Below are positions 27,048 through 55,275 of a stretch of DNA of 64,000 nucleotides, one piece after another. The notes under the pieces are model-generated. The model was not told the origin of the DNA. It worked only from the letters and a program-made list of their open reading frames with translations, and did no database searches. Each line of letters begins with the position of its first letter. Position 1 is the first letter of the stretch. A program made the position numbers and the translations under genes. The DNA is from Ascidiella aspersa (taxonomy: Eukaryota): contig OZ004607.1 of assembly GCA_963924565.1 (NCBI GenBank), positions 6,448,001 to 6,512,000 of the forward strand, read 5' to 3'.

Positions 27048-27098
27048 ACCTAAGCGTTAGCAACAATTTCCATTAAAATGAACTATCTAGGTCTAGGG

Positions 27099-27359
27099 CA
27101 GTGTTTCTTAATAAGGTGATTGGTTTACCCCAGGGTGAATAAATTTTTTTAAGGGTTGAACCAACCAAAAGGGGTGAATAAGGGTGAACGGTCAGAACAT
27201 GAATAATAGCTTGCGAACAAGGCGGATATTCCGGGTGTTCAGTAAACAGGTGGGAATTACCAAAAACAAAATTAATTCTAAGTTTTTTCACAAGGATGAA
27301 TGAAATCTGTAGATTGATGCTAGGGGTAAACAAAACTAAAAAAGGTTTAAGAAACACTG
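27099..27359. mobile_element. hAT-like MITE present in both arms near each tail-to-tail centre (mirror copy 27572-27825)
   Basis: CAGTGTTTCTTAA...TTAAGAAACACTG; TSD GTCTAGGG/CTCTAGGG; internal gggtgaa repeats. Confidence 0.88.
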
Positions 27360-31725: not shown

Positions 31726-31747
31726 TGACGTCACGTTATGACGTAAC
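31726..31747. promoter_or_regulatory. CRE/ATF-like pair TGACGTCA plus TGACGTAA ~650 bp upstream of the TATA box
   Basis: Perfect TGACGTCA at 31726, 38024, 41154, 47227, 56659 and 59794; mutated to TGACTTCA at 50361; absent in copy 1 (~24305). Confidence 0.5.
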
Positions 31748-33114
31748 TTTCGACCCCTACGTTAAAACAACGCCGGGAAGATATTTGTACTCTAGCGTGG
31801 GTTTATTAGGTAGGTTATAATTTGAAAAAAATGTACAGAATATATCCGTTATTTTAAGCTTTTCAGGGTGAAAGAGTAGTGTGTTCCAAACGCTACAGTC
31901 TATGTTCCATAAAATGGCACAAATTATTAACTTTATGACACTTCTCTTCTGTTTTATTTTGCTATCGATTGTGGGACCAAGCTTTCGCTTGCCCAAATAG
32001 TTTTTTCGAAAAAATAGGCTTTATTTAATTACCAAAACCCCAGAAACGCTCATATTGGTTCTTTCACTGAATTTAAAAGCAAATATATCTAATCAACTAA
32101 ACCAAAAGATGATTATCGGTTTCTTAATATATCGGAATAATTAATCTTAATACAGTTTAGAGGCGATTTTTGTAAAGCAACATTGCAAAACACACAGGTG
32201 GTAATGCTTATTGTTAATTGTAAAACCCGAAAAATTTTGCCGGGAAAATATTCAACGTGATCTGCCACGTTTAAAAACAAACATCGTTGCGATACGACGA
32301 AGAAGTTAGGAACGATCGGTCTGTAAGTTTCGAGGAATCTTGACGTCCTAAACCACAACGCACCTCGCAAAATGCTATATAAACGCGACGAAGCACGTCC
32401 CAAATCACACTTTGCATTCAACAAGCAATACTACAAGGTAAGTGATATTTAATTACAAACGTAAGCTTAACTATCCTAGTTTTTGCGTCGCCGAAGACCT
32501 GCTGGTTTTGTTCCTCTGGAGCAACTTTTTAACGTCAGATCGCACCTGTGTATCTAAACACGTGGTGGCGCGCCTATAGCGCAACTTTTATGTATACCAG
32601 TATTTGGCTTGTACTGGCTGTAGATTTTGCTTTACATAGGCCTCGTAGTTGAATTATGGTCTTTAAAGTACTGTGGGCCCAATAAGCTAATCCAAAGTAT
32701 TAAGCAAAAATAGTAAACAATATATGTCGTACTTTTTTTCGTTGGCCCTCGGGCAGCGGTCGGGAAATGCTTCTTTTGTAATTTAAGCCATATTAATTTA
32801 GGACTGATGTGACCCCTGATAAATTAAAACAAGTAGGTGTTAATGGATATAAAGGGGTTAGTCACATGGATTACCAAATGTATTGGTGCATTTATTTAGC
32901 AACCTAAAACTATTGGTAATTATTATTATTGGCTTGCATTACGTAAAAATACTCTGCATCTCCCTTTGTTGATTAAAAATTTGTGATGGTAAAAAAGTAG
33001 GCGCCATGACTTTCTTTCCATCTGCAGTGTGTCTTGTTCAGTCTTATCAACAACAACCGACATTTCTTTCATTTATATTTAGACATTTGACTTGAGCGAA
33101 AATTTTTTTTGCAG

Positions 33115-33684
33115 ATGAACAGCTGCATTTTGATTTTGTCCGTTTTGGTTCTTGTCGTCGCTTTTAGCGAGGCGGCCGTGCTGCAGAACCGAAACAAGAG
33201 GCAGATTTTTTACAACGGACCAACCGGCATCCATGGTAATGGTGCCGCAAGTCTTGGATTAGGACTTGGAGGATTCCAAGCCCAGGCATTGGCCAACGCA
33301 GGACTTGGAATTCAAGGATTTGGTGGAGCCCATGCCGCGCTTGGCGGAACTGCCTCGATCAATAAGGAAGGGTTAAATGCCGCCGTTCAAGGCCAGGCAG
33401 GTATCGGCATTAATCACTTAGCGGGTGTTGCCGCGAATGCAGGTGGGCAACTTGCGATCAATCAGCACGGAATAGGCGCCGCGGCTAACGCAAATCTTCA
33501 AGCAAACCTTGGACCAATTCAAGCAGGAGCTAATCTCGGCGGCGTTGCTCAACTCGGACCAAATGGATTGCACGCCGGGCTTCAAGGTGGCTTCAGCCTT
33601 GGGGATGAGTTGGGGGCTGCAGAAGGCAGGTTCCTTGAAAATGACGGAGTTTTTAACAAATATTGGATCGTCGGTGCTCCCTAA
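33115..33684 (+). CDS. Secreted Gly/Ala-rich precursor, copy 3 (189 aa, intact; NHL instead of NHF)
   Basis: ORF 33109..33684 with the ATG after the acceptor; donor at 32437/32438. Confidence 0.93.
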   Translation: MNSCILILSVLVLVVAFSEAAVLQNRNKRQIFYNGPTGIHGNGAASLGLGLGGFQAQALANAGLGIQGFGGAHAALGGTASINKEGLNAAVQGQAGIGINHLAGVAANAGGQLAINQHGIGAAANANLQANLGPIQAGANLGGVAQLGPNGLHAGLQGGFSLGDELGAAEGRFLENDGVFNKYWIVGAP

Positions 33685-36071
33685 AAAGTAGAAGCGATCA
33701 TCTTTACAGCCTAATTGCAACAATAGTCATTCTCATGTTTACATTTGATGGTTATTTGTCATGGCGGTCAGAATAAAAGTTACATAAATGTACAAAACAA
33801 CCATGTTAAGGTCAGCAAACTGTTTTAATCGCTCGAAAAACGATGTGACTGAACATATTCTTATACATTTTAGCAGTTAGATCAGTTCATCAACCAACCG
33901 ATTTTATACTGTAAATTTAAGAAATTGGTGTATATACATATAGGCTAGAACCAGTGACCAAATTTGTTCTCGAGACCTCCTTTAAGATATTCCATAACTT
34001 ACGCGAGACCCTATTATAGTAGATTACACGTAAACCAAAGGCAATTAGAATCATATTACACAAAACTAACTAAAATCAAGGTATAGCGTTTATTCGGGTT
34101 ATTACGACTTGAATAGAAAAGTGCATTGACCGCTCGCAAAGTAACGAAAATAGGTTTATAGAAACTCATAATTAACCAAGCAATATAAGGATTGTTTTAC
34201 TATTGTATTTCAAAGTATAAAGCAGGAGTCTTGACTTTTTTACCAGTACACTTTCGATTTGTCTGCAAGTAAGGTGTATCCAATTAGAATAATTATCCCT
34301 ACTGTTCACCTAAGCCAGTGCTTTTCAACCTTTTTGCTGGAGTAGAATGCCATGGAAACATTTCACTGGCTCGAGGAACCCGAGTGCAATAATTTCACTG
34401 GCTCGTGAAACCCCAGTGTAATAAACACACCCCCAATTAGCTACACAATTAAGAAATTGCGGAACCCCTGGCCTGTACTAGCGGAACCCTTGGGTTCATC
34501 GGACCCTGGTTGAAAACCACTGACCTAAGCGTTAGCAACAATTTATATTAAAATGAATTCTCTAGGTCTAGGGCAGTATTTCTTAATAAGGTGATTGGTT
34601 TACCCCAGGGTGAATCAATTTTTTTAAGGGTTGAACCAACCAAAAGGGGTGAATAAGGGTGAACGGTCAGAACATGAATGATAGCTTGCGAACAAGGCGG
34701 ATATTCCGGGTGTTCAGTGAACAGGTGGGAATTACCAAAAACAAAATTAATTCTAAGTTTTTTCACAAAGATGAATGGAATCTGTAGATTGATGCTAGGA
34801 GTAAACAAAACTAAAAAAGGTTTAAGAAACACTGCTCTAGGGTATGCCCACGTTTTGCGATACCGGATCAAAATATGCAACAGCATTGTCCTACTTTAAT
34901 ACTTAAGAGAAAAATAGAATATCACAAACCCATCAATAAAATATCACTTCCAAAAAATATCGTCTTATTTTATATTTAAAACAGTTTAGACCAGGACCAG
35001 GAGTCCTAATCTTCTAAGTGACAGGAGTAAGCGAGAGAAATTTGCGCAGATACCCTAGAGCAGTGGTTCTTAAACTGTTTTTAGTTTTGTATACCCCTAG
35101 CATCGATCTCCAGATTCTATTAACCCTGATAAAAAAACTTAATTTAGTTTTTGGAAATTCTCACCTGTTCACTAAACAGGTTGAACACCCGGAATACCAC
35201 CCTGCTCGCAAGCTATCATCCATTTCTGACGGTTCACCCTTATTTACTCCTTTTGGTTGATTCACCCCTGCAAAATGTTATTCACCCGGGGTGGACCAAT
35301 CACCTGATTAAGAAACACTGCCCTAGACCTGGAGAGTTTATTTAAATAGAATATAAATTGTTGCTAACACTTAGGTGAACAGTTGGGATAATTATTCTGA
35401 TGGCATACACCTTACATGCAGACAAATCGAAAGTGTACTGGTAAAAAAGTTCAAGACTTCTGCTTTATACTTTGAAATACAATAGTAAAACAATCACTAT
35501 ATTGTTTGGTTAATTACGAGTTTCCATAAACCGATTTTCATTGTTACTTCACGAGCGGCCAATACATTTTTCTATTCAAGTCGTAATGACCCGAATAAAC
35601 GCTATACCTTGATTTTAGTTAGTTTTGTATAGTTTTGACGACATTCTTGGCAAAGTGAAACAACCCATTCTGACAATTAATCGAACTGCCATTTTGAATA
35701 GGATTCTAATTGCCTCTGGTTTACGTGTAATCTACTAAAATAGGGTCTCGCGTAAGTTATGGAATATCTTAAAGGAGGTCTCGAGAACAAATATTTTGGC
35801 CACTGGTCTAGCTTACACACATATACACCAATTTCTAGAACTTAATGTATAAAATCGGTTGGTTGATGAACTGATCTAACTGCTAAAATGTATAAGATTC
35901 TGTTCAGTCACATCGTTTTTCGAGCGATTAAAACAGTTTGCTGACCTTAACATGGTTGTTTTATACATTTCTGTAACTTTTATTCTGACCGCCATGACAA
36001 ATAACAATCAAATGTAAACATGAGAATGACTATTGTTGCGATTAGGCTGTAAAGATGATCGCTTCTACTTT

Positions 36072-36640
36072 TTAGGGAGCACCGATGATCCAATTTGAGT
36101 TAAAAACTCCGTCATTTTCGAGGAACCTGCCTTCTGCAGCCCTCAACTCATCCCCAAGGCTGAAGCAACCTTGAAGACCGGCGTGCAATCCATTTGGTCC
36201 GAGTTGAGCAACGCCGCCGAGATTAGCTCCTGCTTGAATTGGTCCAAGGTTTCCTTGAAGATTTGCGTTAGCTCCGACGCCTATTCCGTGCTGATTGATC
36301 GCAAGTTGCCCACCTGCATTCGCGGCAACACCTGCGAAGTGATTAATGCCGATACCTGCTTGGCCTTGAACGGCGGCATTTAACCCTTCCTTATTGATCG
36401 AGGCAGTTCCGCCAAGCGCGGCTTGGGCTCCACCAAATCCATGAATTCCAAGTCCTGCGTTGGCCAATGCCTGGGCTTGGAATCCTCCAGGTGCTAATCC
36501 AAGACTTGCGGACCATTACCATGGATGCCGGTTGGTCCGTTGTAAAAAATCTGCCTTTTGTTTCGTTTCTGCAGCACGGCCGCCTCGCTGAAAGCGACGA
36601 CAAGAACCAAAACGGACAAAATCAAAATGCAGCTGTTCAT
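36072..36640 (-). pseudogene. Array copy 4: 1-bp deletion at ~36511 causes a frameshift and early stop
   Basis: gacttgcggaccattacc versus gacttgcggcaccattacc; span 569 rather than 570 nt; promoter and intron intact. A single-base assembly error cannot be excluded. Confidence 0.8.
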
Positions 36641-39600
36641 CTGCAAAAAAAAGTTTTCGCTCAGGTCAAATGTCTAAATATAAATGAAAGAAATGTCGGT
36701 TGTTGTTGATAAGACTAAACAAGTCACACTGCAGATAGAAAGAAAGTAATGACGCCTACTTTTTACCATCACAAATTTTTAATCAACGAATGTAGGTGCT
36801 GAGTATCTATACGTAATGCAAGCCAATAAAAATAATTACCAATAGTTTTAGGTTGCTAAATAAATGCACCAAGACGTTTGTTAATCCATGTGGCTACCCC
36901 CTTTATATCCATTAACACCTACTTATTTTAATTTATCAAGGGTCACATCAGTCCTAAATTAATATGGCTTAAATCCCAAAAAAAGCATTTCCCAACCGCT
37001 GCCCGCGGGCCAACGAAAAAAAGTACAACATATATTATTTACCATTTTTGCTTAATACTTTGGCTTAGCTCATTGGGCCCACAGTACCTTAAATACCATA
37101 ATTCAACTACGAGGCGTATGTAAAGCAAAAATTACAGCCAGTACAAGAGAAATATTGGTATACATAAAATTTGCGCTATAGGTGCGCCACCACGTGTTTA
37201 GATACACAAGTGCGGTCTGACGTTAAAAAGTTGCTCCAGAGGAACAAAACCAGCAGGTCTTCGGCGACACAAAAACTAGGATAGTTAAACTTACACTTGT
37301 ACTTTAATATCACTTACCTTGTAGTATTGCTTGTTGAGTGCAAAGTGTGATTTGGGACGTGCTTCGTCGCGTTTATATAGCATTTTGCGAGGTGCGTTGT
37401 GGTTTTAGGACGTCGAAATTCCTCGAAACTTACAGACCGATCGTTCCTAACTTCTTCGTCGTATCGCAACGATGTTTGTTTTTAAACGTGGCAGATAACG
37501 TTGAATATTGTCCCGGCTAAATTATTCGGGTTTTACAATTAACAATAAGCATTACCACCTTTCTGGTTTGCAATGTTGCTTTACAAAAAATCGCCTCTAA
37601 ACTGTATTAAGATTAATTATTCCGATATATTAAGAAACCGATAATCATCTTTTGGTTTAGTTGATTAGATATATTTGCTTTTAAATTCAGTGAGAGAACC
37701 AATATGAGCGTTTCTGGGGTTTTGGTAATTAAATAAACCCTATTTTTTCGAAAAAACTATTTGGGCAAGCGAAAGCTTGGTGCCACAATCGATACCAAAA
37801 TAAAACAGAAGAGAAGTGTCATAAAGTTAATAATTTGTGCCATTTTATGGAACATAGACTGTAGCGTTTGGAACACACTACTCTTTCACCCGGAAAAGCT
37901 TAAAATAATGGATATATTCTGTACATTTTTTTCAAATTATAACCTACCTAATAAACCCACGCTAGAGTACAAATATCTTCCCGGCGTTGTTTTAACGTAG
38001 GGGTCGAAAGTTACGTCATAACGTGACGTCATGATACCAGTTACCTTTAGAAATTCCTATGTCCGGTCGAACTCGTTCATCTACGATACTTGGTCCAATG
38101 TATATATTTGAAAAGGGATAAAGCGTGAGCGCAAAAATATTGCGATCAGATGGTTGAAATTGACAAAACGTTTATGTTAGAACTAGATGCAAAGCATTGA
38201 GTACACGATAAATGTTTGTACATTCCCAAATGCAGCTGTACTAAAAATTATCCCCGAAATAATTAAAAGGTAGTATACTAAGTAAAAAACCATATAAGAT
38301 TCGCGCAAAGCTAAAAAAGTGTTTGAGCTTATTTAAATAAAATCGGTAAAAAAATATAGTTTGGGGGATTTAGCTTCCTCCCTGGATACACCCTTGCACG
38401 TGGATACAAACTCAGATCACATTTTAAACCCCTTTGACACGTGTTTATAAGAAGGAAACTGTCACCTAAACTTACTTGTTATTTTTTGCGCAATTGATAG
38501 AGGAAGTAAAAACAGAAAATATCCGCACAGTTCAGCGTAATTGGAGAATATCCTTTAACATCCATTATATTCTTTTATTTGAAAACGTTGAAAGCTTCTT
38601 TGAAAATACAATCAGGCATGAATGTATCAAACAAGGTTGGTTGTAATTGAACAAGACCAACTCGTTTGAATTTTAATTCCTGTCATGCCAATAGATAAGG
38701 AAATGTTATTAAGATTAAACATTTCGAAGCATGATGCTGGAATATCGTTAACCATTTTCAGCCGGTGTATATCAGTGCTCAGTAACATTTTTGAACTTTT
38801 TTGAGCTGAGTCAGAGACGGGCTCGGCACTAATCAAAACGCACATTTGGCCAGATACGGACTCGGGACTTGAGAGCTGGACTCGGGTTCATTTTTTGGAC
38901 GTTATCGAACTCGGGTTATTTTTACCCGACTCGGTAGCACTGCCTTAAAACCCGAAACATGTGGTTATTACCCCTACATATTGTATTCTGTACTTTTTTG
39001 TCATAAATTGTTTTTCGAGAGACCAATTAAGCAAGATAAATTACCAATGCGTGTTGGGGCAATAACGGACAAATGGGGCTAAACTTTACTTATGTATTGC
39101 AATGAGTTTTTTTGCGTAGGCTATAGTAAATGTCTGCTATGTTGTAAAATTGAAACCATTAATGTAGGCTATAGCTGTGGCCTGTGGCACCCTATCGCTT
39201 GGAAAGCAGGTTTATTTTGAGATAAGTAGAGAATTTTGACTTGTGAAGATGTGCAAAAGTTTTTACCTGTCCCAGAATAGTGCATAGGCCTACACTCAGA
39301 GTATATACCTGCCTTGATGTACTATAAACGTTCCCGTATTAAATTTATTCACTATATTTCGAAGGAACACTTGCGCATGTATTATCCCAAAGCGTCGTAC
39401 GTGTCATAACCCATCTCTCAAAACTACCCTTTAAGTAAATTAAACGATTTAGGCCTAAGGTCGTTTTATCGCTTGCGCGAATCGATAAAATGTGTGTAAT
39501 GCAGCTTTTGTAATGAAAGTTGCACCTCTTCGACCAAAAACTTTAACACGTCGCTTTTGACTTTTTGGGCGAGACCATCTACATTACTTTTTCTATATTT

Positions 39601-42543
39601 GCTTCGCATTATGTACAAGTGTCATTGAAAGACAAATGGTTAGAAAAACAGTGAATAGCGCCAAATGTATTTGATAGTGGTTATAAAGAGCCCAAACAAC
39701 TTTTCTACTTTGTAAAACACATTGACTATATTGTTCACGACTTACTATTTTAAAAACGTTTGCAAGAATAAATAAAAATACGTCTTAGGTAAAAACACCA
39801 CAGTAATATTAACGATAGTAATATTGTCTAACTTAAGACAGTCATCAACGTATTTATAATTATACCCAAGTGTAACTTGTCGAATATAGTCAATAAAATT
39901 AATACGGGAATGTACATTAAGGCAGGTATTCTAAATGTGTGTGCACTATTCTTAGACAGGCGAAAACTTTTGCAAATCTTCACAAGTCAAAATTTTCTAT
40001 TTATCTTGAAATAAATAAAACTTCTTTCCAAGCGATAGGGCAGCCTACCACAGCTATATAGCCTACTATAACAATTTCAATTTTACAACATAGCGGACGT
40101 TTACTATACGCAAAAAAAACATTGTAATAAATAAAAAAAAGTTTGGCTCTTTTTGCCCCTGCACGCATTGTTAGTTTATCTTGCATGATGTCTCGAAAAA
40201 ACAATTTAAGAAAATAAAATAAAAAGTACAATATATAGGGGTAATAACCGCATGTTTCGGGTTTTGAGGCAGGGCTGCCGAGCCGTGCAAAAATAACCCG
40301 AGTCCGACTCCATCCACAAAAATGAATCCGAGTCCGAATTTCGAGTCCCGAGTGCGATTCTGGCCGATTGTGCGATTTCGATGAGTGCTGAGCCCGTCTC
40401 TGACTCAGCAATTTAAATAAAGTTACTGAGCACTGATACACACCGGCTGAAAATGGTTTACGATATTCCAGCATCATGCTTCGAAATGTTTGTCCTAATA
40501 ACATTACCTATCTATTGGCATGACAGAAATTAAAATTCATCCGAATTGGTCTTGTTCAATTTCAACCATAACCCTTTAGACATATTCATGACCTATTGCA
40601 TTTTCTAAGAAGTTTTCAACGTTTTAAAAATAAAATAAAAAGGAAGTGCCTTGAAGGATATTCTCCAATTACGCTGAACTGTGCGGATATTTTCTGTTTT
40701 TACTTTCTCTTGCAATTGCGCAAAAAATGACAAGAAAGTTTAGGTGCCAGTTTCCTTCTTATAAACACGTGTCAAAGGGGTTTAAAATGTGATCTGAGTT
40801 TTGTATCCACGTGCAAGGGTGTTTTCAGGGGGAAGGTATGTCCTCCAAACTATATTTTTTACCGATATTATTTAAATAAGCTCAAACACTTTTATAGCTT
40901 TGCGCGAATCTTTTAGGGTTTTGTACTTAGTATACTACCTTTTAATTATTTCGAGGATAATTTTTAGTACAGCTGCATTTGGGAATGTACAAACATTTAT
41001 CGTGTACCCAATGCCTTGCGTCTAGTTCTAACATAAACGTTTTGTCAATTTCAACCATCTGATCGCAATATTTTTGCGCTCACGCTTTATCCCTTTTCAA
41101 ATATATTCATTCGACCAAGTATAGTAGATGAACGAGATCGACCGGAAATATCATGACGTCACGTTATGACGTAACTTTCGACCCCTACGTTAAAACAACG
41201 CCGGGAAGATATTTGTACTCTAGCGTGGGTTTATTAGGTAGGTTATAATTTGAAAAAAATGTACAGAATATATCCGTTATTTTAAGCTTTTCAGGGTGAA
41301 AGAGTAGTGTGTTCCAAACGCTACAGTCTATGTTCCATAAAATGGCACAAATTATTAACTTTATGACACTTCTCTTCTGTTTTATTTTGCTATCGATTGT
41401 GGCACCAAGCTTTCGCTTGCCCAAATAGTTTTTTCGAAAAAATAGGGTTTATTTAATTACCAAAACCCCAGAAACGCTCATATTGGTTCTCTCACTGAAT
41501 TTAAAAGCAAATATATCTAATCAACTAAACCAAAAGATGATTATCGGTTTCTTAATATATCGGAATAATTAATCTTAATACAGTTTAGAGGCGATTTTTT
41601 GTAAAGCAACATTGCAAACCAGAAAGGTGGTAATGCTTATTGTTAATTGTAAAACCCGAATAATTTTGCCGGAAAAATATTCAACGTTATCTGCCACGTT
41701 TAAAAACAAACATCGTTGCGATACGACGAAGAAGTTAGGAACGATCGGTCTGTAAGTTTCGAGGAATTTTGACGTCCTAAACCACAACGCACCTCGCAAA
41801 ATGCTATATAAACGCGACGAAGCACGTCCCAAATCACACTTTGCATTCAACAAGCAATACTACAAGGTAAGTGATATTTAATTACAAACGTAAGCTTAAC
41901 TATCCTAGTTTTTGCGTCGCCGAAGACCTGCTGGTTTTGTTCCTCTGGAGCAACTTTTTAACGTCAGATCGCACCTGTGTATCTAAACACGTGGTGGCGC
42001 GCCTATAGCGCAACTTTTATGTATACCAGTATTTGGCTTGTACTGGCTGTAGATTTTGCTTTACATAGGCCTCGTAGTTGAATTATGGTCTTTAAAGTAC
42101 TGTGGGCCCAATAAGCTAATCCAAAGTATTAAGCAAAAATAGTAAACAATATATGTCGTACTTTTTTTCGTTGGCCCTCGGGCAGCGGTCGGGAAATGCT
42201 TCTTTTGTAATTTAAGCCATATTAATTTAGGACTGATGTGACCCCTGATAAATTAATACAAGTAGGTGTTAATGGATATAAAGGGGTTAGTCACATGGAT
42301 TACCAAATGTCTTGGTGCATTTATTTAGCAACCTAAAACTATTGGTAATTATTATTATTGGCTTGCATTACGTAAAAATACTCTGCATCTCCCTTTGTTG
42401 ATTAAAAATTTGTGATGGTAAAAAAGTAGGCGCCATGACTTTCTTTCCATCTGCAGTGTGTCTTGTTCAGTCTTATCAACAACAACCGACATTTCTTTCA
42501 TTTATATTTAGACATTTGACTTGAGCGAAAATTTTTTTTGCAG

Positions 42544-43113
42544 ATGAACAGCTGCATTTTGATTTTGTCCGTTTTGGTTCTTGTCGTCGCTTTTAGCGAG
42601 GCGGCCGTGCTGCAGAACCGAAACAAGAGGCAGATTTTTTACAACGGACCAACCGGCATCCATGGTAATGGTGCCGCAAGTCTTGGATTAGGACTTGGAG
42701 GATTCCAAGCCCAGGCATTGGCCAACGCAGGACTTGGAATTCAAGGATTTGGTGGAGCCCATGCCGCGCTTGGCGGAACTGCCTCGATCAATAAGGAAGG
42801 GTTAAATGCCGCCGTTCAAGGCCAGGCAGGTATCGGCATTAATCACTTCGCGGGTGTTGCCGCGAATGCAGGTGGGCAACTTGCGATCAATCAGCACGGA
42901 ATAGGCGCCGCGGCTAACGCAAATCTTCAAGCAAACCTTGGACCAATTCAAGCAGGAGCTAATCTCGGCGGCGTTGCTCAACTCGGACCAAATGGATTGC
43001 ATGCCGGGCTTCAAGGTGGCTTCAGCCTTGGGGATGAGTTGGGGGCTGCAGAAGGCAGGTTCCTTGAAAATGACGGAGTTTTTAACAAATATTGGATCGT
43101 CGGTGCTCCCTAA
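42544..43113 (+). CDS. Secreted Gly/Ala-rich precursor, copy 5 (189 aa, intact)
   Basis: ORF 42538..43113; donor at 41866/41867. Confidence 0.93.
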   Translation: MNSCILILSVLVLVVAFSEAAVLQNRNKRQIFYNGPTGIHGNGAASLGLGLGGFQAQALANAGLGIQGFGGAHAALGGTASINKEGLNAAVQGQAGIGINHFAGVAANAGGQLAINQHGIGAAANANLQANLGPIQAGANLGGVAQLGPNGLHAGLQGGFSLGDELGAAEGRFLENDGVFNKYWIVGAP

Positions 43114-45500
43114 AAAGTAGAAGCGATCATCTTTACAGCCTAATTGCAACAATAGTCATTCTCATGTTTACATTTGATGGTTATTTGTCATGGCGGTCAG
43201 AATAAAAGTTACATAAATGTACAAAACAACCATGTTAAGGTCAGCAAACTGTTTTAATCGCTCGAAAAACGATGTGACTGAACATATTCTTATACATTTT
43301 AGCAGTTAGATCAGTTCATCAACCAACCGATTTTATACTGTAAATTTAAGAAATTGGTGTATATACATATAGGCTAGAACCAGTGACCAAATTTGTTCTC
43401 GAGACCTCCTTTAAGATATTCCATAACTTACGCGAGACCCTATTATAGTAGATTACACGTAAACCAAAGGCAATTAGAATCATATTACACAAAACTAACT
43501 AAAATCAAGGTATAGCGTTTATTCGGGTTATTACGACTTGAATAGAAAAGTGCATTGACCGCTCGCAAAGTAACGAAAATAGGTTTATGGAAACTCGTAA
43601 TTAACCAAGCAATATAAGGATTGTTTTACTATTGTATTTCAAAGTATAAAGCAGGAGTCTTGACTTTTTTACCAGTACACTTTCGATTTGTCTGCAAGTA
43701 AGGTGTATCCCATTAGAATAATTATCCCTACTGTTCACCTAAGCCAGTGCTTTTCAACCTTTTTGCTGGAGTAGAATGCCATGGAAACATTTCACTGGCT
43801 CGAGGAACCCGAGTGCAATAATTTCACTGGCTCGAGGAACCCCAGTGCAATAAACACACCCCAATTAGCTACGCAATTTAGAAATTGCGGAACCCCTGGC
43901 CTGTACTAGCGGAACCCTTGGGTTCATCGGACCATGGTTGAAAACCACTGACCTAAGCAGTAGCAACAATTTCTATTAAAATGAATTCTCCAGGTCTAGG
44001 GCAGTGTTTCTTAATAAGGTGATTGGTTTACCCCAGGGTGAATAAATTTTTTTAAGGGTTGAACCAACCAAAAGGGGTGAATAAGGGTGAACGGTCAGAA
44101 CGTGAATGATAGCTTGCGAACAAGGCGGATATTCCGGGTGTTCAGTGAACAGGTGGGAATTACCAAAAACAAAATTAATTCTAAGTTTTTTCACAAGGAT
44201 GAATGGAATCTGTAGATTGATGCTAGGAGTAAACAAAACTAAAAAAGGTTTAAGAAACACTGCTCTAGGGTATGCCCACGTTTTGCGATACCGGATCAAA
44301 ATATGTAACAGCATTGTCCTACTTTAATACTTACGAGAAAAATAGAATATCACAAACCCATCAATAAAATATCACTTCCAAAAAATATCGTCTTATTTTA
44401 TATTTAAAACAGTTTAGACCAGGACCAGGAGTCCTAATCTTCTAAGTGACAGGAGTAAGCGAGAGAAATTTGCGCAGATACCCTAGAGCAGTGGTTCTTA
44501 AACTGTTTTTAGTTTTGTATACCCCTAGCATCGATCTCCAGATTCTATTAACCCTGATAAAAAAACTTAATTTAGTTTTTGGAAATTCTCACCTGTTCAC
44601 TAAACAGGTTGAACACCCGGAATACCACCCTGCTCGCAAGCTATCATCCATTTCTGACGGTTCACCCTTATTTACTCCTTTTGGTTGATTCACCCCTGCA
44701 AAATGTTATTCACCCGGGGTGGACCAATCACCTGATTAAGAAACACTGCCCTAGACCTGGAGAGTTTATTTAAATAGAATATAAATTGTTGCTAACACTT
44801 AGGTGAACAGTTGGGATAATTATTCTGATGGCATACACCTTACATGCAAACAAATCGAAAGTGTACTGGTAAAAAAGTTCAAGACTTCTGCTTTATACTT
44901 TGAAATACAATAGTAAAACAATCACTATATTGTTTGGTTAATTACGAGTTTCCATAAACCGATTTTCATTGTTACTTCACGAACGGCCAATACATTTTTC
45001 TATTCAAGTCGTAATGACCCGAATAAACGTTATACCTTGATTTTAGTTAGTTTTGTATAGTTTTGACGACATTCTTGGCAAAGTGAAACAATCCATTCAG
45101 ACAATTAATCGAACTGCCATTTTGAATATGATTCTAATTGCCTCTGGTTTACGTGTAATCTACTAAAATAGGGTCTCGGGTAAGTTATGGAATATCTTAA
45201 AAAGAGGTCTCGAGAACAAATATTTTGGCCACTGGTCTAGCTTACACACATATACACCAATTTCTAGAACTTAATGTATAAAATCGGTTGGTTGATAAAC
45301 TGATCTAACTGCTAAAATGTATAAGATTCTGTTCAGTCACATCGTTTTTCGAGCGATTAAAACAGTTTGCTGACCTTAACATGGTTGTTTTATACATTTC
45401 TGTAACTTTTATTCTAACCGCCATGACAAATAACAATCAAATGTAAACATGTGAATGACTATTGTTGCGATTAGGCTGTAAAGATGATCGCTTCTACTTT

Positions 45501-46003
45501 TTAGGGAGCACCGATGATCCAATTTGAGTTAAAAACTCCGTCATTTTCGAGGAACCTGCCTTCTGCAGCCCCCAACTCATCCCCAAGGCTGAAGCCACCT
45601 TGAACACCGGTGTGGAATCCATTTGGTCCGAGTTGAGCAACGCCGCCGAGATTAGCTCCTGCTTTAATTGGTCCAAGGTTTGCTTGACGATTTGCGTTAG
45701 CCGCGGCGCCTATTCCATTGTGATTGATCGCAAGTTGCCCACCTGCCCTTCCTTATTGATCGAGGCAGTTCCGCCAAGCGCGGCTTGGGCTCCACCAAAT
45801 CCATGAATTCCAAGTCCTGCGTTGGCCAATGCCTGGGCTTGGAATCCTCCAGGTCCTAATTCAAGACTTGCGGCACCATTACCATGAATGCCGGTTGGTC
45901 CGTTGTAAAAAATCTGCCTTTTGTTTCGTTTCTGCAGCACGGCCGCCTCGCTAAAAGCGACGACAAGAACCAAAACGGACAAAATCAAAATGCAGCTGTT
46001 CAT
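45501..46003 (-). pseudogene. Array copy 6: 67-bp internal deletion and frameshift (97-aa truncated product); ~160-bp upstream deletion at ~46857
   Basis: cacctgc|ccttccttattg junction at ~45746; span 503 nt; gtggcag|gtttagttg junction upstream of the TATA box. Confidence 0.88.
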
Positions 46004-49000
46004 CTGCGAAAAAAAGCGCTTGCTCAGGTCAAATGTCTAAATATAAATGAAAGAAATGTCGGTTGTTGTTGATAAGACTAAACAAGACACACTGCAGATG
46101 GAAAGAAAGTCATGGCGCCTACTTTTTTACCATCACAAATTTTTAATCAACAAAGGGAGATGCAGAGTATTTTTACGTAATGCAAGCCAATAAAAATAAT
46201 TACCAATAGTTTTAGGTTGCTAAATAAATGCACCAAGACGTTTGTTAATCCATGTGGCTACCACCTTCATATCCATTAACACTTACTTATTTTAATTTAT
46301 CAAGGGTCACATCAGTCCTAAATTAATATGGCTTAAATCCCAAAAAAAGCATTTCCCAACCGCTGCCCGTGGGCCAACGAAACAAAGTACGACATATATT
46401 GTATACTATTTTTGCTTAATACTTTGGCTTAGCTCATTGGGCCCACAGTACCTTAAATACCATAATTCAACTACGAGGCCTATGTAAAGCAAAAATTACA
46501 GCCAGTACAAGAGAAATATTGGTATACATAAAAGTTGCGCTATAGGTGCGCCACCACGTGTTTAGATACACAGGTGCGGTTTGACGTTAAAAAGTTGCTC
46601 CAGAGGAACAAAACCAGCAGGTCTTCGGCGACGCAAAAACTAGGATAGTTAAGCTTACGTTTGTAATTAAATATCACTTACCTTGTGGTATTGCTTGTTG
46701 AATGCAAAGTGTGATTTGGGACGTGCTTCGTCGCGTTTATATAGCATTTTGCGAGGTGCGTTGTGGTTTAGGACGTCAAAATTCCTCGAAACTTACAGAC
46801 CGATCGTTCCTAACTTCTTCGTCGTATCGCAACGATGTTTGTTTTTAAACGTGGCAGGTTTAGTTGATTAGATATATTTGCTTTTAAATTCAGTGAAAGA
46901 ACCAATATGAGCGTTTCTGGGGTTTTGGTAATTAAATAAACCCTATTTTTTCGAAAATACTATTTGGGCAAGCGAAAGCTTGGTGCCACAATCGATAGCA
47001 AAATAAAACAAAAGAGAAGTGTCATAAAGTTAATAATTTGAGCCATTTTATGGAACATAGACTGTAGCGTTTGGAACACACTACTCTTTCACCCTGAAAA
47101 GCTTAAAATAACGGATATATTCTGTACATTTTTTTCAAATTATAACCTACCTAATAAACCCACGCTAGAGTACAAATATCTTCCCGGCGTTGTTTTAGCG
47201 TAGGGGTCGAAAGTTACGTCATAACGTGACGTCATGATACAAGTTACATTTATAAATTCCTATGTCTGGTCGAACTCGTTCATCTACTATACTTGGTCGA
47301 ATGTATATATTTGAAAAGGGATAAAGCGTGAGCGCAAAAATATTGAGATCAGATGGTTGAAATTGACAAAACCTTTATGTTAGAACTAGACGCAAGGCAT
47401 TGGGTACACGATCAATGTTTGTACATTCCCAAATGCAGTTGTACTAAAAATTATACTCGAAATAATTAAAAGGTAGTATACTAAGTAAAAAAACATATAA
47501 GATTCGCGCAAAGCTAAAAAAGTGTTTGAGCTTATTTAAATAAAATCGGTAAAAAAATATAGTTTGGGGGATATAGCTTCCTCCCTGGATACACCCTTGC
47601 ACGTGGATACAAACTCAGATCACATTTTAAACCCCTTTGACACGTGTTTATAAGAAGGAAACTGTCACCTAAACTTACTTGTTATATTTTGCGCAATGGA
47701 TAGAGGAAGTAAAAACAGAAAATATCCGCACAGTTCAGCGTAATTGGAGAATGTCCTTTAAGTCACATCCTTTATATTCTTTTATTTGAAAACGTTGAAA
47801 GCTTCTTTGAAAATACAATCAGGCATGAATGTATCAAACAAGGTTGGTTGTAATTGAACAAGACCAACTCGTTTGAATTTTAATTCCTGTCATGCCAATA
47901 GATAAGGAAATGTTATTAAGATTAAACATTTCGAAGCATGATGCTGGAATATCGTTAACCATTTTCAGCCGGTGTATATCAGTGCTCAGTAACATTTTTG
48001 AACTTTTTTGAGCTGAGTCAGAGACGGGCTCGGCACTAATCAAAACGCACATTTGGCCAGATACGGACTCGGGACTTGAGAGCTGGACTCGGGTTCATTT
48101 TTTGGACGTTATCGAACTCGGGTTATTTTTACCCGACTCGGTAGCACTGCCTTAAAACCCGAAACATGTGGTTATTACCCCTACATATTGTATTCTGTAC
48201 TTTTTTGTCATAAATTGTTTTTCGAGAGACCAATTAAGCAAGATAAATTACCAATGCGTGTTGGGGCAATAACGGACAAATGGGGCTAAACTTTACTTAT
48301 GTATTGCAATGAGTTTTTTTGCGTAGGCTATAGTAAATGTCTGCTATGTTGTAAAATTGAAACCATTAATGTAGGCTATAGCTGTGGCCTGTGGCACCCT
48401 ATCGCTTGGAAAGCAGGTTTATTTTGAGATAAGTAGAGAATTTTGACTTGTGAAGATGTGCAAAAGTTTTTACTTGTCCCAGAATAGTGCATAGGCCTAC
48501 ACTCAGAGTATATACCTGCCTTGATGTACTATAAACGTTCCCGTATTAAATTTATTCACTATATTTCGAAGGAACACTTGCGCATGTATTATCCCAAAGC
48601 GTCGTACGTGTCATAACCCATCTCTCAAAACTACCCTTTAAGTAAATTAAACGATTTAGGCCTAAGGTCGTTTTATCGCTTGCGCGAATCGATAAAATGT
48701 GTGTAATGCAGCTTTTGTAATGAAAGTTGCACCTCTTCGACCAAAAACTTTAACACGTCGCTTTTGACTTTTTGGGCGAGACCATCTACATTACTTTTTC
48801 TATATTTGCTTCGCATTATGTACAAGTGTCATTGAAAGACAAATGGTTAGAAAAACAGTGAATAGCGCCAAATGTATTTGATAGTGGTTATAAAGAGCCC
48901 AAACAACTTCTCTACTTTGTAAAACACATTGACTATATTGTTCACGACTTACTATTTTAAAAACGTTTGCAAGAATAAATAAAAATACGTCTTAGGTAAA

Positions 49001-51749
49001 AACACCACAGTAATATTAACGATAGTAATATTGTCTAACTTAAGACAGTCATCAACGTATTTATAATTATACCCAAGTGTAACTTGTCGAATATAGTCAA
49101 TAAAATTAATACGGGAATGTACATTAAGGCAGGTATTCTAAATGTGTGTGCACTATTCTTAGACAGGCGAAAACTTTTGCAAATCTTCACAAGTCAAAAT
49201 TTTCTATTTATCTTGAAATAAATAAAACTTCTTTCCAAGCGATAGGGTAGCCTACCACAGCTATATAGCCTACTATAACAATTTCAATTTTACAACATAG
49301 CGGACGTTTACTATACGCAAAAAAAACATTGTAATAAATAAAAAAAAGTTTGGCTCTTTTTGCCCCTGCACGCATTGTTAGTTTATCTTGCATGATGTCT
49401 CGAAAAAACAATTTAAGAAAATAAAATAAAAAGTACAATATATAGGGGTAATAACCGCATGTTTCGGGTTTTGAGGCAGGGCTGCCGAGCCGTGCAAAAA
49501 TAACCCGAGTCCGACTCCATCCACAAAAATGAATCCGAGTCCGAATTTCGAGTCCCGAGTGCGATTCTGGCCGATTGTGCGATTTCGATGAGTGCTGAGC
49601 CCGTCTCTGACTCAGCAATTTAAATAAAGTTACTGAGCACTGATACACACCGGCTGAAAACGGTTTACGATATTCCAGCATCATGCTTCGAAATGTTTGT
49701 CCTAATAACATTACCTATCTATTGGCATGACAGAAATTAAAATTCATCCGAATTGGTCTTGTTCAATTTCAACCATAACCCTTTAGACATATTCATGACC
49801 TATTGCATTTTCTAAGAAGTTTTCAACGTTTTAAAAATAAAATAAAAAGGAAGTGCCTTGAAGGATATTCTCCAATTACGCTGAACTGTGCGGATATTTT
49901 CTGTTTTTACTTTCTCTTGCAATTGCGCAAAAAATGACAAGAAAGTTTAGGTGCCAGTTTCCTTCTTATAAACACGTGTCAAAGGGGTTTAAAATGTGAT
50001 CTGAGTTTTGTATCCACGTGCAAGGGTGTTTTCAGGGGGAAGGTATGTCCTCCAAACTATATTTTTTACCGATATTATTTAAATAAGCTCAAACACTTTT
50101 ATAGCTTTGCGCGAATCTTTTAGGGTTTTGTACTTAGTATACTACCTTTTAATTATTTCGAGGATAATTTTTAGTACAGCTGCATTTGGGAATGTACAAA
50201 CATTTATCGTGTACCCAATGCCTTGCGTCTAGTTCTAACATAAACGTTTTGTCAATTTCAACCATCTGATCGCAATATTTTTGCGCTCACGCTTTATCCC
50301 TTTTCAAATATATTCATTCGACCAAGTATAGTAGATGAACGAGTTCGACCGGAAATATCATGACTTCACGTTATGACGTAACTTTCGACCCCTACGTTAA
50401 AACGACGCCGGGAAGATATTTGTACTCTAGCGTGGGTTTATTAGGTAGGTTATAATTTGAAAAAAATGTACAGAATATATCCATTATTTTAAGCTTTTCC
50501 GGGTGAAAGAGTAGTGTGTTCCAAACGCTTCAGTCTATGCTCCATAAAATGGCTCAAATTATTAACTTTATGACACTTCTCTTCTGTTTTATTTTGGTAT
50601 CGATTGTGGGACCAAGCTTTCGCTTGCCCAAATAGTATTTTCGAAAAAATAGGCTTTATTTAATTACCAAAACCCCAGAAACGCTCATATTGGTTCTTTC
50701 ACTGCATTTAAAAGCAAATATACCTAATCAATTAAACCAAAAGATGATTATCGGTTTCTTAATATATCGGAATAATTAATCTTAATACAGTTTAGAGGCG
50801 ATTTTTGTAAAGCAACATTGCAAAACACACAGGTGGTAATGCTTATTGTTAATTGTAAAACCCGAAAAATTTTGCCGGGAAAATATTCAACGTTATCTGC
50901 CACGTTTAAAAACAAACATCGTTGCGATACGACGAAGAAGTTAGGAACGATCGGTCTGTAAGTTTCGAGGAATTTTGACGTCCTAAACCACAACGCACCT
51001 CGCAAAATGCTATATAAACGCGACGAAGCACGTCCCAAATCACACTTTGCATTCAACAAGCAATACTACAAGGTAAGTGATATTTAATTACAAACGTAAG
51101 CTTAACTATCCTAGTTTTTGCGTCGCCGAAGACCTGCTGGTTTTGTTCCTCTGGAGCAACTTTTTAACGTCAGATCGCACCTGTGTATCTAAACACGTGG
51201 TGGCGCGCCTATAGCGCAACTTTTATTTATACCAGTATTTGGCTTGTACTGGCTGTAGATTTTGCTTTACATAGGCCTCGTAGTTGAATTATGGTCTTTA
51301 AAGTACTGTGGGCCCAATAAGCTAATCCAAAGTATTCAGCAAAAATAGTAAACAATATATGTCGTACTTTTTTTCGTTGGCCCTCGGGCAGCGGTCGGGA
51401 AATGCTTCTTTTGTAATTTAAGCCATATTAATTTAGGACTGATGTGACCCCTGATAAATTAATACAAGTAGGTGTTAATGGATATAAAGGGGTTAGTCAC
51501 ATGGATTACCAAATGTCTTGGTGCATTTATTTAGCAACCTAAAACTATTGGTAATTATTATTATTGGCTTGCATTACGTAAAAATACTCTGCATCTCCCT
51601 TTGTTGATTAAAAATTTGTGATGGTAAAAAAGTAGGCGCCATGACTTTCTTTCCATCTGCAGTGTGTCTTGTTCAGTCTTATCAACAACAACCGACATTT
51701 CTTTCATTTATATTTAGACATTTGACTTGAGCGAAAATTTTTTTTGCAG

Positions 51750-52319
51750 ATGAACAGCTGCATTTTGATTTTGTCCGTTTTGGTTCTTGTCGTCGCTTTT
51801 AGCGAGGCGGCCGTGCTGCAGAACCGAAACAAGAGGCAGATTTTTTACAACGGACCAACCGGCATCCATGGTAATGGTGCCGCAAGTCTTGGATTAGGAC
51901 TTGGAGGATTCCAAGCCCAGGCATTGGCCAACGCAGGACTTGGAATTCAAGGATTTGGTGGAGCCCATGCCGCGCTTGGCGGAACTGCCTCGATCAATAA
52001 GGAAGGGTTAAATGCCGCCGTTCAAGGCCAGGCAGGTATCGGCATTAATCACTTCGCGGGTGTTGCCGCGAATGCAGGTGGGCAACTTGCGATCAATCAG
52101 CACGGAATAGGCGCCGCGGCTAACGCAAATCTTCAAGCAAACCTTGGACCAATTCAAGCAGGAGCTAATCTCGGCGGCGTTGCTCAACTCGGACCAAATG
52201 GATTGCACGCCGGGCTTCAAGGTGGCTTCAGCCTTGGGGATGAGTTGGGGGCTGCAGAAGGCAGGTTCCTTGAAAATGACGGAGTTTTTAACAAATATTG
52301 GATCGTCGGTGCTCCCTAA
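51750..52319 (+). CDS. Secreted Gly/Ala-rich precursor, copy 7 (189 aa, intact)
   Basis: ORF 51744..52319; donor at 51072/51073. Confidence 0.93.
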   Translation: MNSCILILSVLVLVVAFSEAAVLQNRNKRQIFYNGPTGIHGNGAASLGLGLGGFQAQALANAGLGIQGFGGAHAALGGTASINKEGLNAAVQGQAGIGINHFAGVAANAGGQLAINQHGIGAAANANLQANLGPIQAGANLGGVAQLGPNGLHAGLQGGFSLGDELGAAEGRFLENDGVFNKYWIVGAP

Positions 52320-54705
52320 AAAGTAGAAGCGATCATCTTTACAGCCTAATTGCAACAATAGTCATTCTCATGTTTACATTTGATGGTTATTTGTCATGGC
52401 GGTCAGAATAAAAGTTACATAAATGTACAAAACAACCATGTTAAGGTCAGCAAACTGTTTTAATCGCTCGAAAAACGATGTGACTGAACATATTCTTATA
52501 CATTTTAGCAGTTAGATCAGTTCATCAACCAACCGATTTTATACTGTAAATTTAAGAAATTGGTGTATATACATATAGGCTAGAACCAGTGACCAAATTT
52601 GTTCTCGAGACCTCCTTTAAGATATTCCATAACTTACGCGAGACCCTATTATAGTAGATTACACGTAAACCAAAGGCAATTAGAATCATATTACACAAAA
52701 CTAACTAAAATCAAGGTATAGCGTTTATTCGGGTTATTACGACTTGAATAGAAAAGTGCATTGACCGCTCGCAAAGTAACGAAAATAGGTTTAAGGAAAC
52801 TCGTAATTAACCAAGCAATATAAGGATTGTTTTACTATTGTATTTCAAAGTATAAAGCAGGAGTCTTGACTTTTTTACCAGTACACTTTCGATTTGTCTG
52901 CAAGTAAGGTGTATCCCATTAGAATAATTATCCCTACTGTTCACCTAAGCCAGTGCTTTTCAACCTTTTTGCTGGAGTAGAATGCCATGGAAACATTTCA
53001 CTGGCTCGAGGAACCCGAGTGCAATAATTTCACTGGCTCGAGGAACCCCAGTGCAATAAACACACCCCAATTAGCTACGCAATTTAGAAATTGCGGAACC
53101 CCTGGCCTGTACTAGCGGAACCCTTGGGTTCATCGGACCATGGTTGAAAACCACTGACCTAAGCAGTAGCAACAATTTCTATTAAAATGAATTCTCCAGG
53201 TCTAGGGCAGTGTTTCTTAATAAGGTGATTGGTTTACCCCAGGGTGAATAAATTTTTTTAAGGGTTGAACCAACCAAAAGGGGTGAATAAGGGTGAACGG
53301 TCAGAACGTGAATGATAGCTTGCGAACAAGGCGGATATTCCGGGTGTTCAGTGAACAGGTGGGAATTACCAAAAACAAAATTAATTCTAAGTTTTTTCAC
53401 AAGGATGAATGGAATCTGTAGATTGATGCTAGGAGTAAACAAAACTAAAAAAGGTTTAAGAAACACTGCTCTAGGGTATGCCCACGTTTTGCGATACCGG
53501 ATCAAAATATGTAACAGCATTGTCCTACTTTAATACTTAAGAGAAAAATAGAATATCACAAACCCATCAATAAAATATCACTTCCAAAAAATATCGTCTT
53601 ATTTTATATTTAAAACAGTTTAGACCAGGACCAGGAGTCCTAATCTTCTAAGTGACAGGAGTAAGCGAGAGAAATTTGCGCAGATACCCTAGAGCAGTGG
53701 TTCTTAAACTGTTTTTAGTTTTGTATACCCCTAGCATCGATCTCCAGATTCTATTAACCCTGATAAAAAAACTTAATTTAGTTTTTGGAAGTTCTCACCT
53801 GTTCACTAAACAGGTTGAACACCCGGAATACCACCCTGCTCGCAAGCTATCATCCATTTCTGACGGTTCACCCTTATTTACTCCTTTTGGTTGATTCACC
53901 CCTGCAAAATGTTATTCACCCGGGGTGGACCAATCACCTGATTAAGAAACACTGCCCTAGACCTGGAGAGTTTATTTAAATAGAATATAAATTGTTGCTA
54001 ACACTTAGGTGAACAGTTGGGATAATTATTCTGATGGCATACACCTTACATGCAGACAAATCGAAAGTGTACTGGTAAAAAAGTTCAAGACTTCTGCTTT
54101 ATACTTTGAAATACAATAGTAAAACAATCACTATATTGTTTGGTTAATTACGAGTTTCCATAAACCGATTTTCATTGTTACTTCACGAGCGGCCAATACA
54201 TTTTTCTATTCAAGTCGTAATGACCCGAATAAACGCTATACCTTGATTTTAGTTAGTTTTGTATAGTTTTGACGACATTCTTGGCAAAGTGAAACAACCC
54301 ATTCAGACAATTAATCGAACTGCCATTTTGAATAGGATTCTAATTGCCTCTGGTTTACGTGTAATCTACTAAAATAGGGTCTCGCGTAAGTTATGGAATA
54401 TCTTAAAGGAGGTCTCGAGAACAAATATTTTGGCCACTGGTCTAGCTTACACACATATACACCAATTTCTAGAACTTAATGTATAAAATCGGTTGGTTGA
54501 TGAACTGATCTAACTGCTAAAATGTATAAGATTCTGTTCAGTCACATCGTTTTTCGAGCGATTAAAACAGTTTGCTGACCTTAACATGGTTGTTTTATAC
54601 ATTTCTGTAACTTTTATTCTGACCGCCATGACAAATAACCATCAAATGTAAACATGAGAATGACTATTGTTGCGATTAGGCTGTAAAGATGATCGCTTCT
54701 ACTTT

Positions 54706-55275
54706 TTAGGGAGCACCGATGATCCAATTTGAGTTAAAAACTCCGTCATTTTCGAGGAACCTGCCTTCTGCAGCCCTCAACTCATCCCCAAGGCTGAAGC
54801 CACCTTGAAGACCGGCGTGCAATCCATTTGGTCCGAGTTGAGCAACGCCGCCGAGATTAGCTCCTGCTTGAATTGGTCCAAGGTTTCCTTGAAGATTTGC
54901 GTTAGCTCCGACGCCTATTCCGTGCTGATTGATCGCAAGTTGCCCACCTGCATTCGCGGCAACACCTGCGAAGTGATTAATGCCGATACCTGCTTGGCCT
55001 TGAACGGCGGCATTTAACCCTTCCTTATTGATCGAGGCAGTTCCGCCAAGCGCGGCTTGGGCTCCACCAAATCCATGAATTCCAAGTCCTGCGTTGGCCA
55101 ATGCCTGGGCTTGGAATCCTCCAGGTGCTAATCCAAGACTTGCGGCACCATTACCATGGATGCCGGTTGGTCCGTTGTAAAAAATCTGCCTTTTGTTTCG
55201 TTTCTGCAGCACGGCCGCCTCGCTGAAAGCGACGACAAGAACCAAAACGGACAAAATCAAAATGCAGCTGTTCAT
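54706..55275 (-). CDS. Secreted Gly/Ala-rich precursor, copy 8 (189 aa; the only intact - copy; variant isoform)
   Basis: ORF 54706..55281; differences include QKRNKR, LAPGG, IHG, AQA, VGANA, GNLG, ELRA and FNSNWII. Confidence 0.9.
   Translation of the reverse strand: MNSCILILSVLVLVVAFSEAAVLQKRNKRQIFYNGPTGIHGNGAASLGLAPGGFQAQALANAGLGIHGFGGAQAALGGTASINKEGLNAAVQGQAGIGINHFAGVAANAGGQLAINQHGIGVGANANLQGNLGPIQAGANLGGVAQLGPNGLHAGLQGGFSLGDELRAAEGRFLENDGVFNSNWIIGAP

Follow-up and report, generated by a model that had tools for sequence, protein, structure and literature searches.

A two-faced, glycine-rich secreted-type protein encoded by an amplified gene array of the ascidian Ascidiella aspersa: a possible attacin-like effector or matrix protein

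Background

In the ascidian Ascidiella aspersa, a transcribed gene family confined to a single array of ten copies encodes a precursor whose Gly-rich, nearly uncharged core is predicted, from the pattern of its residues, to fold as a four-hairpin amphipathic beta-meander with two chemically distinct faces. The copy under study lies in a stretch of 64,000 nucleotides of contig OZ004607.1 (positions 6,448,001 to 6,512,000 of the forward strand), hereafter called the window, in which all positions are counted unless indicated otherwise. The function that we tentatively favour is that of a convergent, attacin-like, acid-boosted and membrane-active effector perforating microbial membranes, and the structural alternative that was already named in the original prediction is nearly as likely. 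Both readings share secretion, trimming and a two-faced hairpin sheet, and part ways over the partner of the apolar face, which is lipid in the one and a second sheet in the other.

The ascidian antimicrobial peptides treated in the reviews consulted fall into short helices, small modified peptides and disulfide-linked peptides. A large, Cys-free and uncharged beta-meander effector would, if true, be a new class for tunicates, and the attacin design would then have arisen twice. The four-hairpin repeat would moreover be a simple test object for the way in which Gly-rich, weakly charged proteins like attacins harm membranes, and for the question whether hairpin repetition alone yields a self-inserting barrel. 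If structural, the protein would represent a natural tandem-hairpin self-assembling material, relevant to tunic biology and underwater coatings.

Results

Gene and precursor

The 570 bases at 42544-43113 (+) form an open reading frame of 189 amino acids and constitute a genuine gene; the frame is considered to be beyond chance because of its TATA box, exon/intron layout, RNA reads and ten copies (Table 1). A stretch of 22 nt around the TATA box is present upstream of eight of the nine copies in the window; upstream of copy 2, both this stretch and exon 1 remained unmatched. The AATAAA listed as candidate polyadenylation signal belongs to a hexamer seen nine times in this AT-rich locus against 8.5 times expected, i.e. 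not above chance.

Recounting on the translation reproduced every count of the original prediction: a propiece of nine residues (21-29) ending in RNKR, followed by a chain of 160 residues that starts with Gln and holds no Cys and five His, with one Lys and one Glu in its first 134 residues and then a tail opening with DEL. The sole Cys of the precursor sits in the signal peptide, and the RNKR furin-type site is kept in ten of the ten copies. The proposed 20-residue signal does contain the hydrophobic stretch (best nine-residue Kyte-Doolittle mean of 3.5 in residues 1-20) and ends in S-E-A; the cut by signal peptidase after Ala20 is deduced from this hydropathy and from the small residues at -3 and -1. 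The tail, described before as acidic, is so only mildly (five Asp/Glu versus two Lys/Arg in 26 residues).

Table 1. Positions of the gene parts and of the array members
Feature	Position	Strand	Remark
TATA box	41805..41812	+	seen directly in the sequence
Non-coding exon 1, start approximate	41835..41866	+	GTAAGT follows; RNA reads carry the last 17 bases
5' UTR intron	41867..42543	+	GT...polypyrimidine-CAG in the sequence; ATG right after the acceptor
Predicted signal peptide, residues 1-20	42544..42603	+	hydrophobic core, small -3/-1 residues
Propiece, residues 21-29	42604..42630	+	furin-type RNKR end in the translation; putative cleavage
Core, residues 30-163	42631..43032	+	eight alternating apolar/polar segments, ends in Gly
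C-terminal tail, residues 164-189, and stop	43033..43113	+	acidic part, single Arg172, hypervariable 179-186 (43078-43101)
Candidate polyadenylation signal AATAAA	43201..43206	+	position suits
Whole array, alternating inverted segments	22785..64000	.	unit ~7.5-9.4 kb, continues to ~67.6 kb (self-BLAST)
Copy 1, intact	25582..26151	+	different tail
Copy 2, broken	28578..29148	-	2-nt deletion, stop after 32 aa
Copy 3, intact	33115..33684	+	
Copy 4, broken	36072..36640	-	1-nt deletion, stop after 48 aa
Copy 5, intact	42544..43113	+	gene under study
Copy 6, broken	45501..46003	-	67-nt core deletion, stop after 97 aa
Copy 7, intact	51750..52319	+	protein identical to copy 5
Copy 8, intact	54706..55275	-	protein 94% identical to copy 5
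Copy 9, intact	61183..61752	+	protein identical to copy 5
Copy 10, intact	G000:C1:6512142-6512708		same protein as copy 8; just beyond the window

Transcription

The gene family is transcribed and spliced, with exon 1 joined to the ATG. RNA evidence was drawn from a raw-read set of the same species, of which four runs were pooled and about 6% was read (7.8 million records). Nineteen reads match the gene, all oriented as plus-strand RNA would be in a usual stranded library. Nine reads end loosely on their 5' side at 42542, and the consensus of these overhangs is identical to the last 17 bases of exon 1; the intron bins at 41905-42514 have zero RNA depth in the same set; a formal splice joint at 42542 was not called by the read-mapping program. 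At three sites the reads bear the letters of the minus-strand copies (15/15, 8/10 and 3/3), and expression is therefore shown for the family and not for the copy at 42544-43113 itself. A set of contigs, of unrecorded kind, covers the coding exon only.

Two other groups of sequences depart from the assembled gene. Five RNA reads follow the gene through signal and propiece and, from 42627, run into about 57 unlike bases that resemble the core start shifted by one base; this diverging stretch is absent from the assembly in a search allowing one mismatch, so that it would stem from a divergent allele or paralog that is present in other animals or missing from the assembly. A divergent paralog, an allele or a broken copy are all possible as source. 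Contigs of a differently labelled organism break off abruptly from the gene at 41881, 42704, 42840 and 42885, a sign that other animals may carry insertions or rearranged copies.

A ten-copy array of alternating orientation

All matches to the protein in the 309-Mb genome are confined to one array on the 41-Mb contig that carries the window, at about 22.8-67.6 kb on the scale of the window, where seven intact and three broken copies were found. The copies alternate in orientation, with plus-strand starts spaced 7.5-9.4 kb apart, and have coding identities of 95.0-100%; the five plus-strand copies are nearly alike (98.8-99.8%). Self-comparison revealed large inverted arms between neighbouring tail-to-tail copies, and these sequence relations suggest that the array originated when a copy was duplicated in inverted orientation and the resulting pair was then amplified in tandem. 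An assembly artefact was considered and found unlikely, as the five copies on the plus strand and the five on the minus strand are unlike in state and sequence.

Smaller elements recur with the copies. The centre of each tail-to-tail pair (43951-44804 and its equivalents) holds inverted arms of about 330 bases, around 81% alike, possibly a small non-autonomous element that sits on the axis of the inverted duplication. In both head-to-head copies, a perfect CRE palindrome adjoined by a second half-site lies some 650 bases in front of the TATA box, at 41154-41172 and at 38013-38031.

The core has a two-faced beta pattern

Pattern statistics were calculated on residues 30-163 (134 aa) against 2000 shuffles, with self-similarity scored over 69 offsets. 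The hydrophobic moment at 180 degrees has a z of 5.1, a value reached by none of the 2000 shuffles, and the helical moment at 100 degrees shows no signal (z -0.24). As controls for alternation, 24 windows of two bacterial repeat proteins gave a maximum z of 1.7, and 114 ODF3 relatives, which are not independent of each other, a maximum of 3.1. Of the 69 offsets tested for self-similarity, 15 (z 5.5) and 33 (z 4.0) stand out as peaks, and the two halves of the core align with 35% identity.

Assigned by eye, the core divides into eight segments of 11-13 residues in which apolar and polar residues alternate. In this by-eye assignment, one face consists of A/L/I/G/F/V at 53 of 53 positions, 28 of these being Ala or Gly, and the other face of G/Q/N/A/H/S/T at 43 of 45. 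Loops that fit the pattern apolar-[N/G]-x-x-G-apolar return at residues 49, 82, 115 and 147, i.e. every 32-33 residues, next to a fifth match at residue 64 that falls out of this spacing; the chain of loops occurred in none of 20000 shuffles, for a motif picked after viewing the sequence. Among the intact copies, three Ala/Val/Gly swaps on the strand faces and one His/Gln swap leave the pattern intact.

These features predict a four-hairpin meander. The segments would be of about membrane-spanning length, with Phe and His at or near their ends, and an even strand number, alternating faces and hairpin loops as in transmembrane beta-barrels are present at the level of pattern. Neither of two low-confidence AlphaFold2 models contains the meander: the single-sequence model (pLDDT 43) and the one made with a seven-row alignment of near-identical copies (pLDDT 37), both uninformative, consist mostly of coil and helix, apart from one short hairpin close to the C-terminus in the second.

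Searches for relatives

No relative of the protein was found in the collections described below, and we regard it as a low-complexity orphan which is hard to search for, so that its absence from related ascidians is not implied. Pfam gave nothing for the whole protein up to E 1, and for four sub-regions up to E 10 nothing except Lamprin, a lamprey family, at E 1.2 and 9.5 bits against a cut-off of 34, probably a compositional trace. The PDB holds no match to the whole protein; two matches to the repeat profile (E 1.7 and 2.3) were attributed to chance. A word-indexed search of 5.8 billion proteins left none of 1827 candidates at E 0.01, and a half-repeat profile run against longer proteins none of 8000 scored at E 0.1, the latter being weak evidence. 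By phmmer against 1.84 billion representatives, two long bacterial-type repeat proteins matched over short stretches only and were rejected as compositional. In the ESM Atlas the best value was 0.82 for the whole protein, and the core gave nothing usable among the named clusters.

Contig matches to the pattern were confirmed in none of 395 metagenome, 207 prokaryote and 28 viral cases, and horizontal transfer is therefore unsupported. One match to the signal peptide on another contig (C2, E 0.3) was rejected; it lies in AT-rich DNA between the exons of another gene and lacks a Gly-rich core. Searches of the open literature, covered through titles and abstract openings, gave no description of the family, and three core motifs occurred in none of the papers; in the abstract on Epi-1 and in passages on Tuphoxin, no link to the protein was found.

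Comparison with insect attacins

According to the original prediction, mature attacin chains begin with Gln; the prediction saw in attacins a likeness of layout only and no demonstrable homology. Pfam, the PDB and the protein collections likewise yielded no homolog. The protein has no match to the Attacin_N and Attacin_C profiles of Pfam, and a genome profile search with PF03769, run without a positive control, gave no match either; for want of a profile match, the protein is not filed as an attacin.

According to PMC7924397, attacins carry a signal, a propiece and an RXXR site. Mature attacins are described in PMC10690985 as Cys-free, with 14-22% Gly and net charges from -3 to +10, and taken together the two sources describe RXXR-processed proteins of about 20 kDa. 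One attacin has been modelled as a five-strand amphipathic antiparallel sheet forming a trimeric porin-like barrel and was shown to damage outer membranes (PMC10690985); as of that article, no attacin membrane structure had been solved.

The protein studied here resembles attacins in its signal, short propiece and RXXR site (with predicted cleavage) and in a Cys-free, Gly-rich mature chain of about 16-20 kDa; the amphipathic antiparallel sheet modelled for attacins would have its counterpart in the strong sequence pattern of the core. Its Gly share (38 of 160 residues, 24%) slightly exceeds the range reported for attacins. It differs by far fewer charged residues, a regular four-hairpin repeat, an acidic C-terminal tail and a chordate host. 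The remark that the chain is not cationic weighs little as an objection, given the wide charge range of mature attacins. With the beta pattern of the core, the amphipathic sheets modelled for attacins and this charge range, the analogy is, on this comparison, stronger than originally held, and by analogy the protein could work like an attacin without detectable kinship.

Comparison with ascidian peptides

In PMC7387483, ascidian antimicrobial precursors are described as having C-terminal anionic regions, with styelins and clavanins cut before D and DD; Ciona peptide precursors are said there to be without basic processing motifs, in a screen ranging over 50-100 aa, and LPS-inducible Ciona peptide genes to carry putative kappaB sites. 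Amidation requires a C-terminal Gly, and clavanins are amidated (PMC10608444). Clavanin activity is reported to be His-dependent and to occur at low pH (PMC5198042), and acid is stored by tunic bladder cells (PMC5465252). Botryllin has a precursor of 158 aa (PMC9966394).

Clavanins, styelins, Ci-MAM and Ci-PAP share with the present protein a conserved signal, an anionic C-terminal extension starting from Asp, His residues and a likely amidation. They are cationic helices of 20-40 residues, whereas the present core is neutral, beta-patterned and 134 residues long; the furin site likewise contrasts with the Ciona precursors. The parallel with clavanins drawn in the original prediction thus stood for the acidic extension and the His content and fell for the amphipathic helix, of which there was no trace at 100 degrees. 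A cationic amphipathic helix was not found (helical z -0.24, core +0.5 at pH 7), and the precursor, at 189 aa, is not short compared to the 50-100 aa of Ciona and the 158 aa of botryllin. An anionic C-terminal region starting from an acidic residue is present (Asp-Glu start, net about -3).

Charge, processing and the variable tail

Counted over its side chains, the core carries a charge of 0 at pH 8, +0.5 at pH 7 and +3.8 at pH 5.5, and the tail has a net charge of about -3 at pH 7. At their border, Leu-Gly is followed by Asp-Glu, with the tail starting at Asp164. A cut in front of Asp164 that leaves Gly163 to donate an amide is plausible, because ascidian precursors are cut before D or DD and amidation, as found in clavanins, needs a C-terminal Gly.

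The signal peptide has no amino-acid replacement across the ten copies. Among the copies, 24 of 402 columns vary in the core and 1 of 60 in the signal, compared with 70 of 676 intron columns. In the comparison of copy 5 with copy 8, the core has a pN of 0.023 and a pS of 0.049, resting on only seven and five changes, at an intron distance of 0.071. For residues 179-189, pN is 0.15-0.19 and pS is 0 in each of the three comparisons between intact copies, over about seven synonymous sites. Within residues 179-186, 5 of 8 positions vary among the seven intact copies, against 11 of 181 elsewhere (Fisher p 1e-4, for a region chosen post hoc and copies that are not independent). Arg172 and its flanking residues are invariant in all copies. 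A further tail version, with seven residues changed within 179-186, was present in two RNA reads and one contig from other samples.

Discussion

In the effector reading, the precursor would be secreted, lose its propiece by a cut after RNKR and likely also shed the acidic tail, leaving a roughly 133-residue uncharged core whose Gln30 could cyclise to an N-terminal pyroglutamate and to which Gly163 could donate an amide after cleavage before Asp164. This core would be disordered in water; once its five His take up protons, in acidic granules or in tunic fluid, it might be switched toward anionic membranes, on which the core would fold into four amphipathic beta-hairpins, the apolar face inserting and the sheet possibly closing as an eight-strand barrel or a larger oligomeric barrel. 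Microbial cells would likely be permeabilised by the inserted core, and the tail could serve as a removable guard or targeting tag. What favours lipid contact is the length of the strands, the location of Phe and His at their ends, the layout for processing and the array's turnover. The reading also draws on the strict alternation in the core, the attacin parallels, the cuts before Asp in ascidian precursors, the low-pH activity of clavanins and the acid stored by tunic bladder cells. Recent duplication, broken copies and replacement-rich tails are common in defence families, and the reading is helped by the recent duplication, the three broken copies out of ten and the tail with its pN of 0.15-0.19 and pS of 0. 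Against it speak a core that is uncharged at seawater pH, fast change in the discarded tail and not in the core, the lack of a match to a kappaB-type site (two patterns) in 37400-41830, a yield of only 19 RNA reads in 7.8 million, two AlphaFold2 models, both uninformative, that do not show the meander, an apolar face rich in Ala and Gly, and the lack of a homolog in the collections searched.

A self-assembling matrix protein, to which we attach a somewhat lower probability, would use the same trimmed hairpin sheets, packing them apolar-to-apolar or coating an interface, so that a film or fibres of amyloid type would arise. Such structures might form in the tunic cuticle, in egg coats, in feeding mucus, in an adhesive or in blood-cell traps; the propiece and tail might then delay assembly and the many copies provide dosage. 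Lamprin, silk-like proteins, chorion proteins and curli are Gly-rich self-assembling matrix proteins. The present protein is like them in being a secreted-type, low-complexity Gly/Ala/Asn/Gln chain with beta propensity, and is unlike them in having no significant match, long and strictly two-faced strands, predicted processing at both ends and a hypervariable tail. Its Ala/Gly-rich apolar face (28 of 53) is no less fit for packing between sheets than for contact with lipid, and together with neutrality at seawater pH and the absence of kappaB-type sites in the stretch scanned, this is why the matrix reading stays close. The almost uncharged chain, with an Asn/Gln-rich polar face opposite the Ala/Gly-rich one, the 98.8-99.8% likeness of the five plus-strand copies and the lone Pfam trace, Lamprin (E 1.2, far below the cut-off and probably compositional), point the same way. 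Ascidian morula cells, those of Botryllus, are moreover reported (PMC9966394) to have an amyloid-forming secretion together with furin in their granules. The core, on the other hand, offers just one Tyr and one Lys among the cross-linking residues Tyr, Lys and Cys, the product is short and processed, and three broken copies with a replacement-only tail are less expected of a plain structural protein.

OmpA-type outer-membrane barrels have eight two-faced strands with apolar residues outward, polar residues and Gly inward and Phe at strand ends. A bolder form of the effector reading, which we consider unlikely, is that fourfold hairpin amplification gave a self-inserting eight-stranded barrel, switched by acid and by removal of the fast-evolving tail. 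With the same low likelihood, the outer-membrane-barrel design would then have arisen independently in a chordate, and attacins would have a convergent counterpart. The likeness consists in two-faced strands built from repeated hairpins, at the level of pattern only; the present protein differs from such barrels by lacking a PDB or Pfam match, by an apolar face that is half Ala/Gly, and by being a eukaryotic secreted precursor for which no insertion machinery is known.

It is doubtful, and less probable still, that a variable 17-residue C-terminal peptide, freed after Arg172, is the active part in recognition or signalling and the beta-core its carrier or storage scaffold. The concentration of variation at 179-186 (5/8 versus 11/181, p 1e-4, post hoc), the additional tail version in two RNA reads and a contig and the constancy of Arg172 with its flanks would fit such a peptide, but a lone Arg is a weak processing site, an ordered core of 134 residues is costly for a product of 17, and relaxed constraint on a discarded tail also yields replacements, in a comparison of about seven synonymous sites.

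Least probable of all is a young, nearly neutral orphan gene of little function, passively amplified by inverted segmental duplication, to which the lack of relatives in the collections searched, the three broken copies out of ten, the few reads and a core pN of 0.023 versus pS of 0.049 resting on seven and five changes would be congenial, but which sits badly with a full promoter-intron-signal-furin layout, an old fourfold internal repeat whose halves are 35% identical and yet keep the two-faced pattern, and coding columns that vary less than intron columns (24/402 and 1/60 versus 70/676).

Neighbouring loci

Two tandem ODF3/CIMAP1-like genes with SHIPPO repeats adjoin the array at 10888-11403 (-) and 14745-15287 (-), each with a long last coding exon. 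Among the named matches to this ODF3 neighbour, the best are those of Ciona intestinalis (85%) and Styela clava (80%), and named non-tunicates reach at most 69%, which points to an ascidian host, probably a phlebobranch. At 6557-7687 (+), a GC-rich open frame of 376 codons is likely an exon of a low-complexity protein; it gave no significant Pfam match. Just beyond the array, at L014:6200-8477 (+), several long open frames resemble exons of a large helical protein, with no Pfam match at E 10. Elsewhere in the genome, at G000:C2:19659557-19661514 (-) (L044), fragmented LINE-like endonuclease and reverse-transcriptase frames, recognised from their translations only, lie by housekeeping genes.
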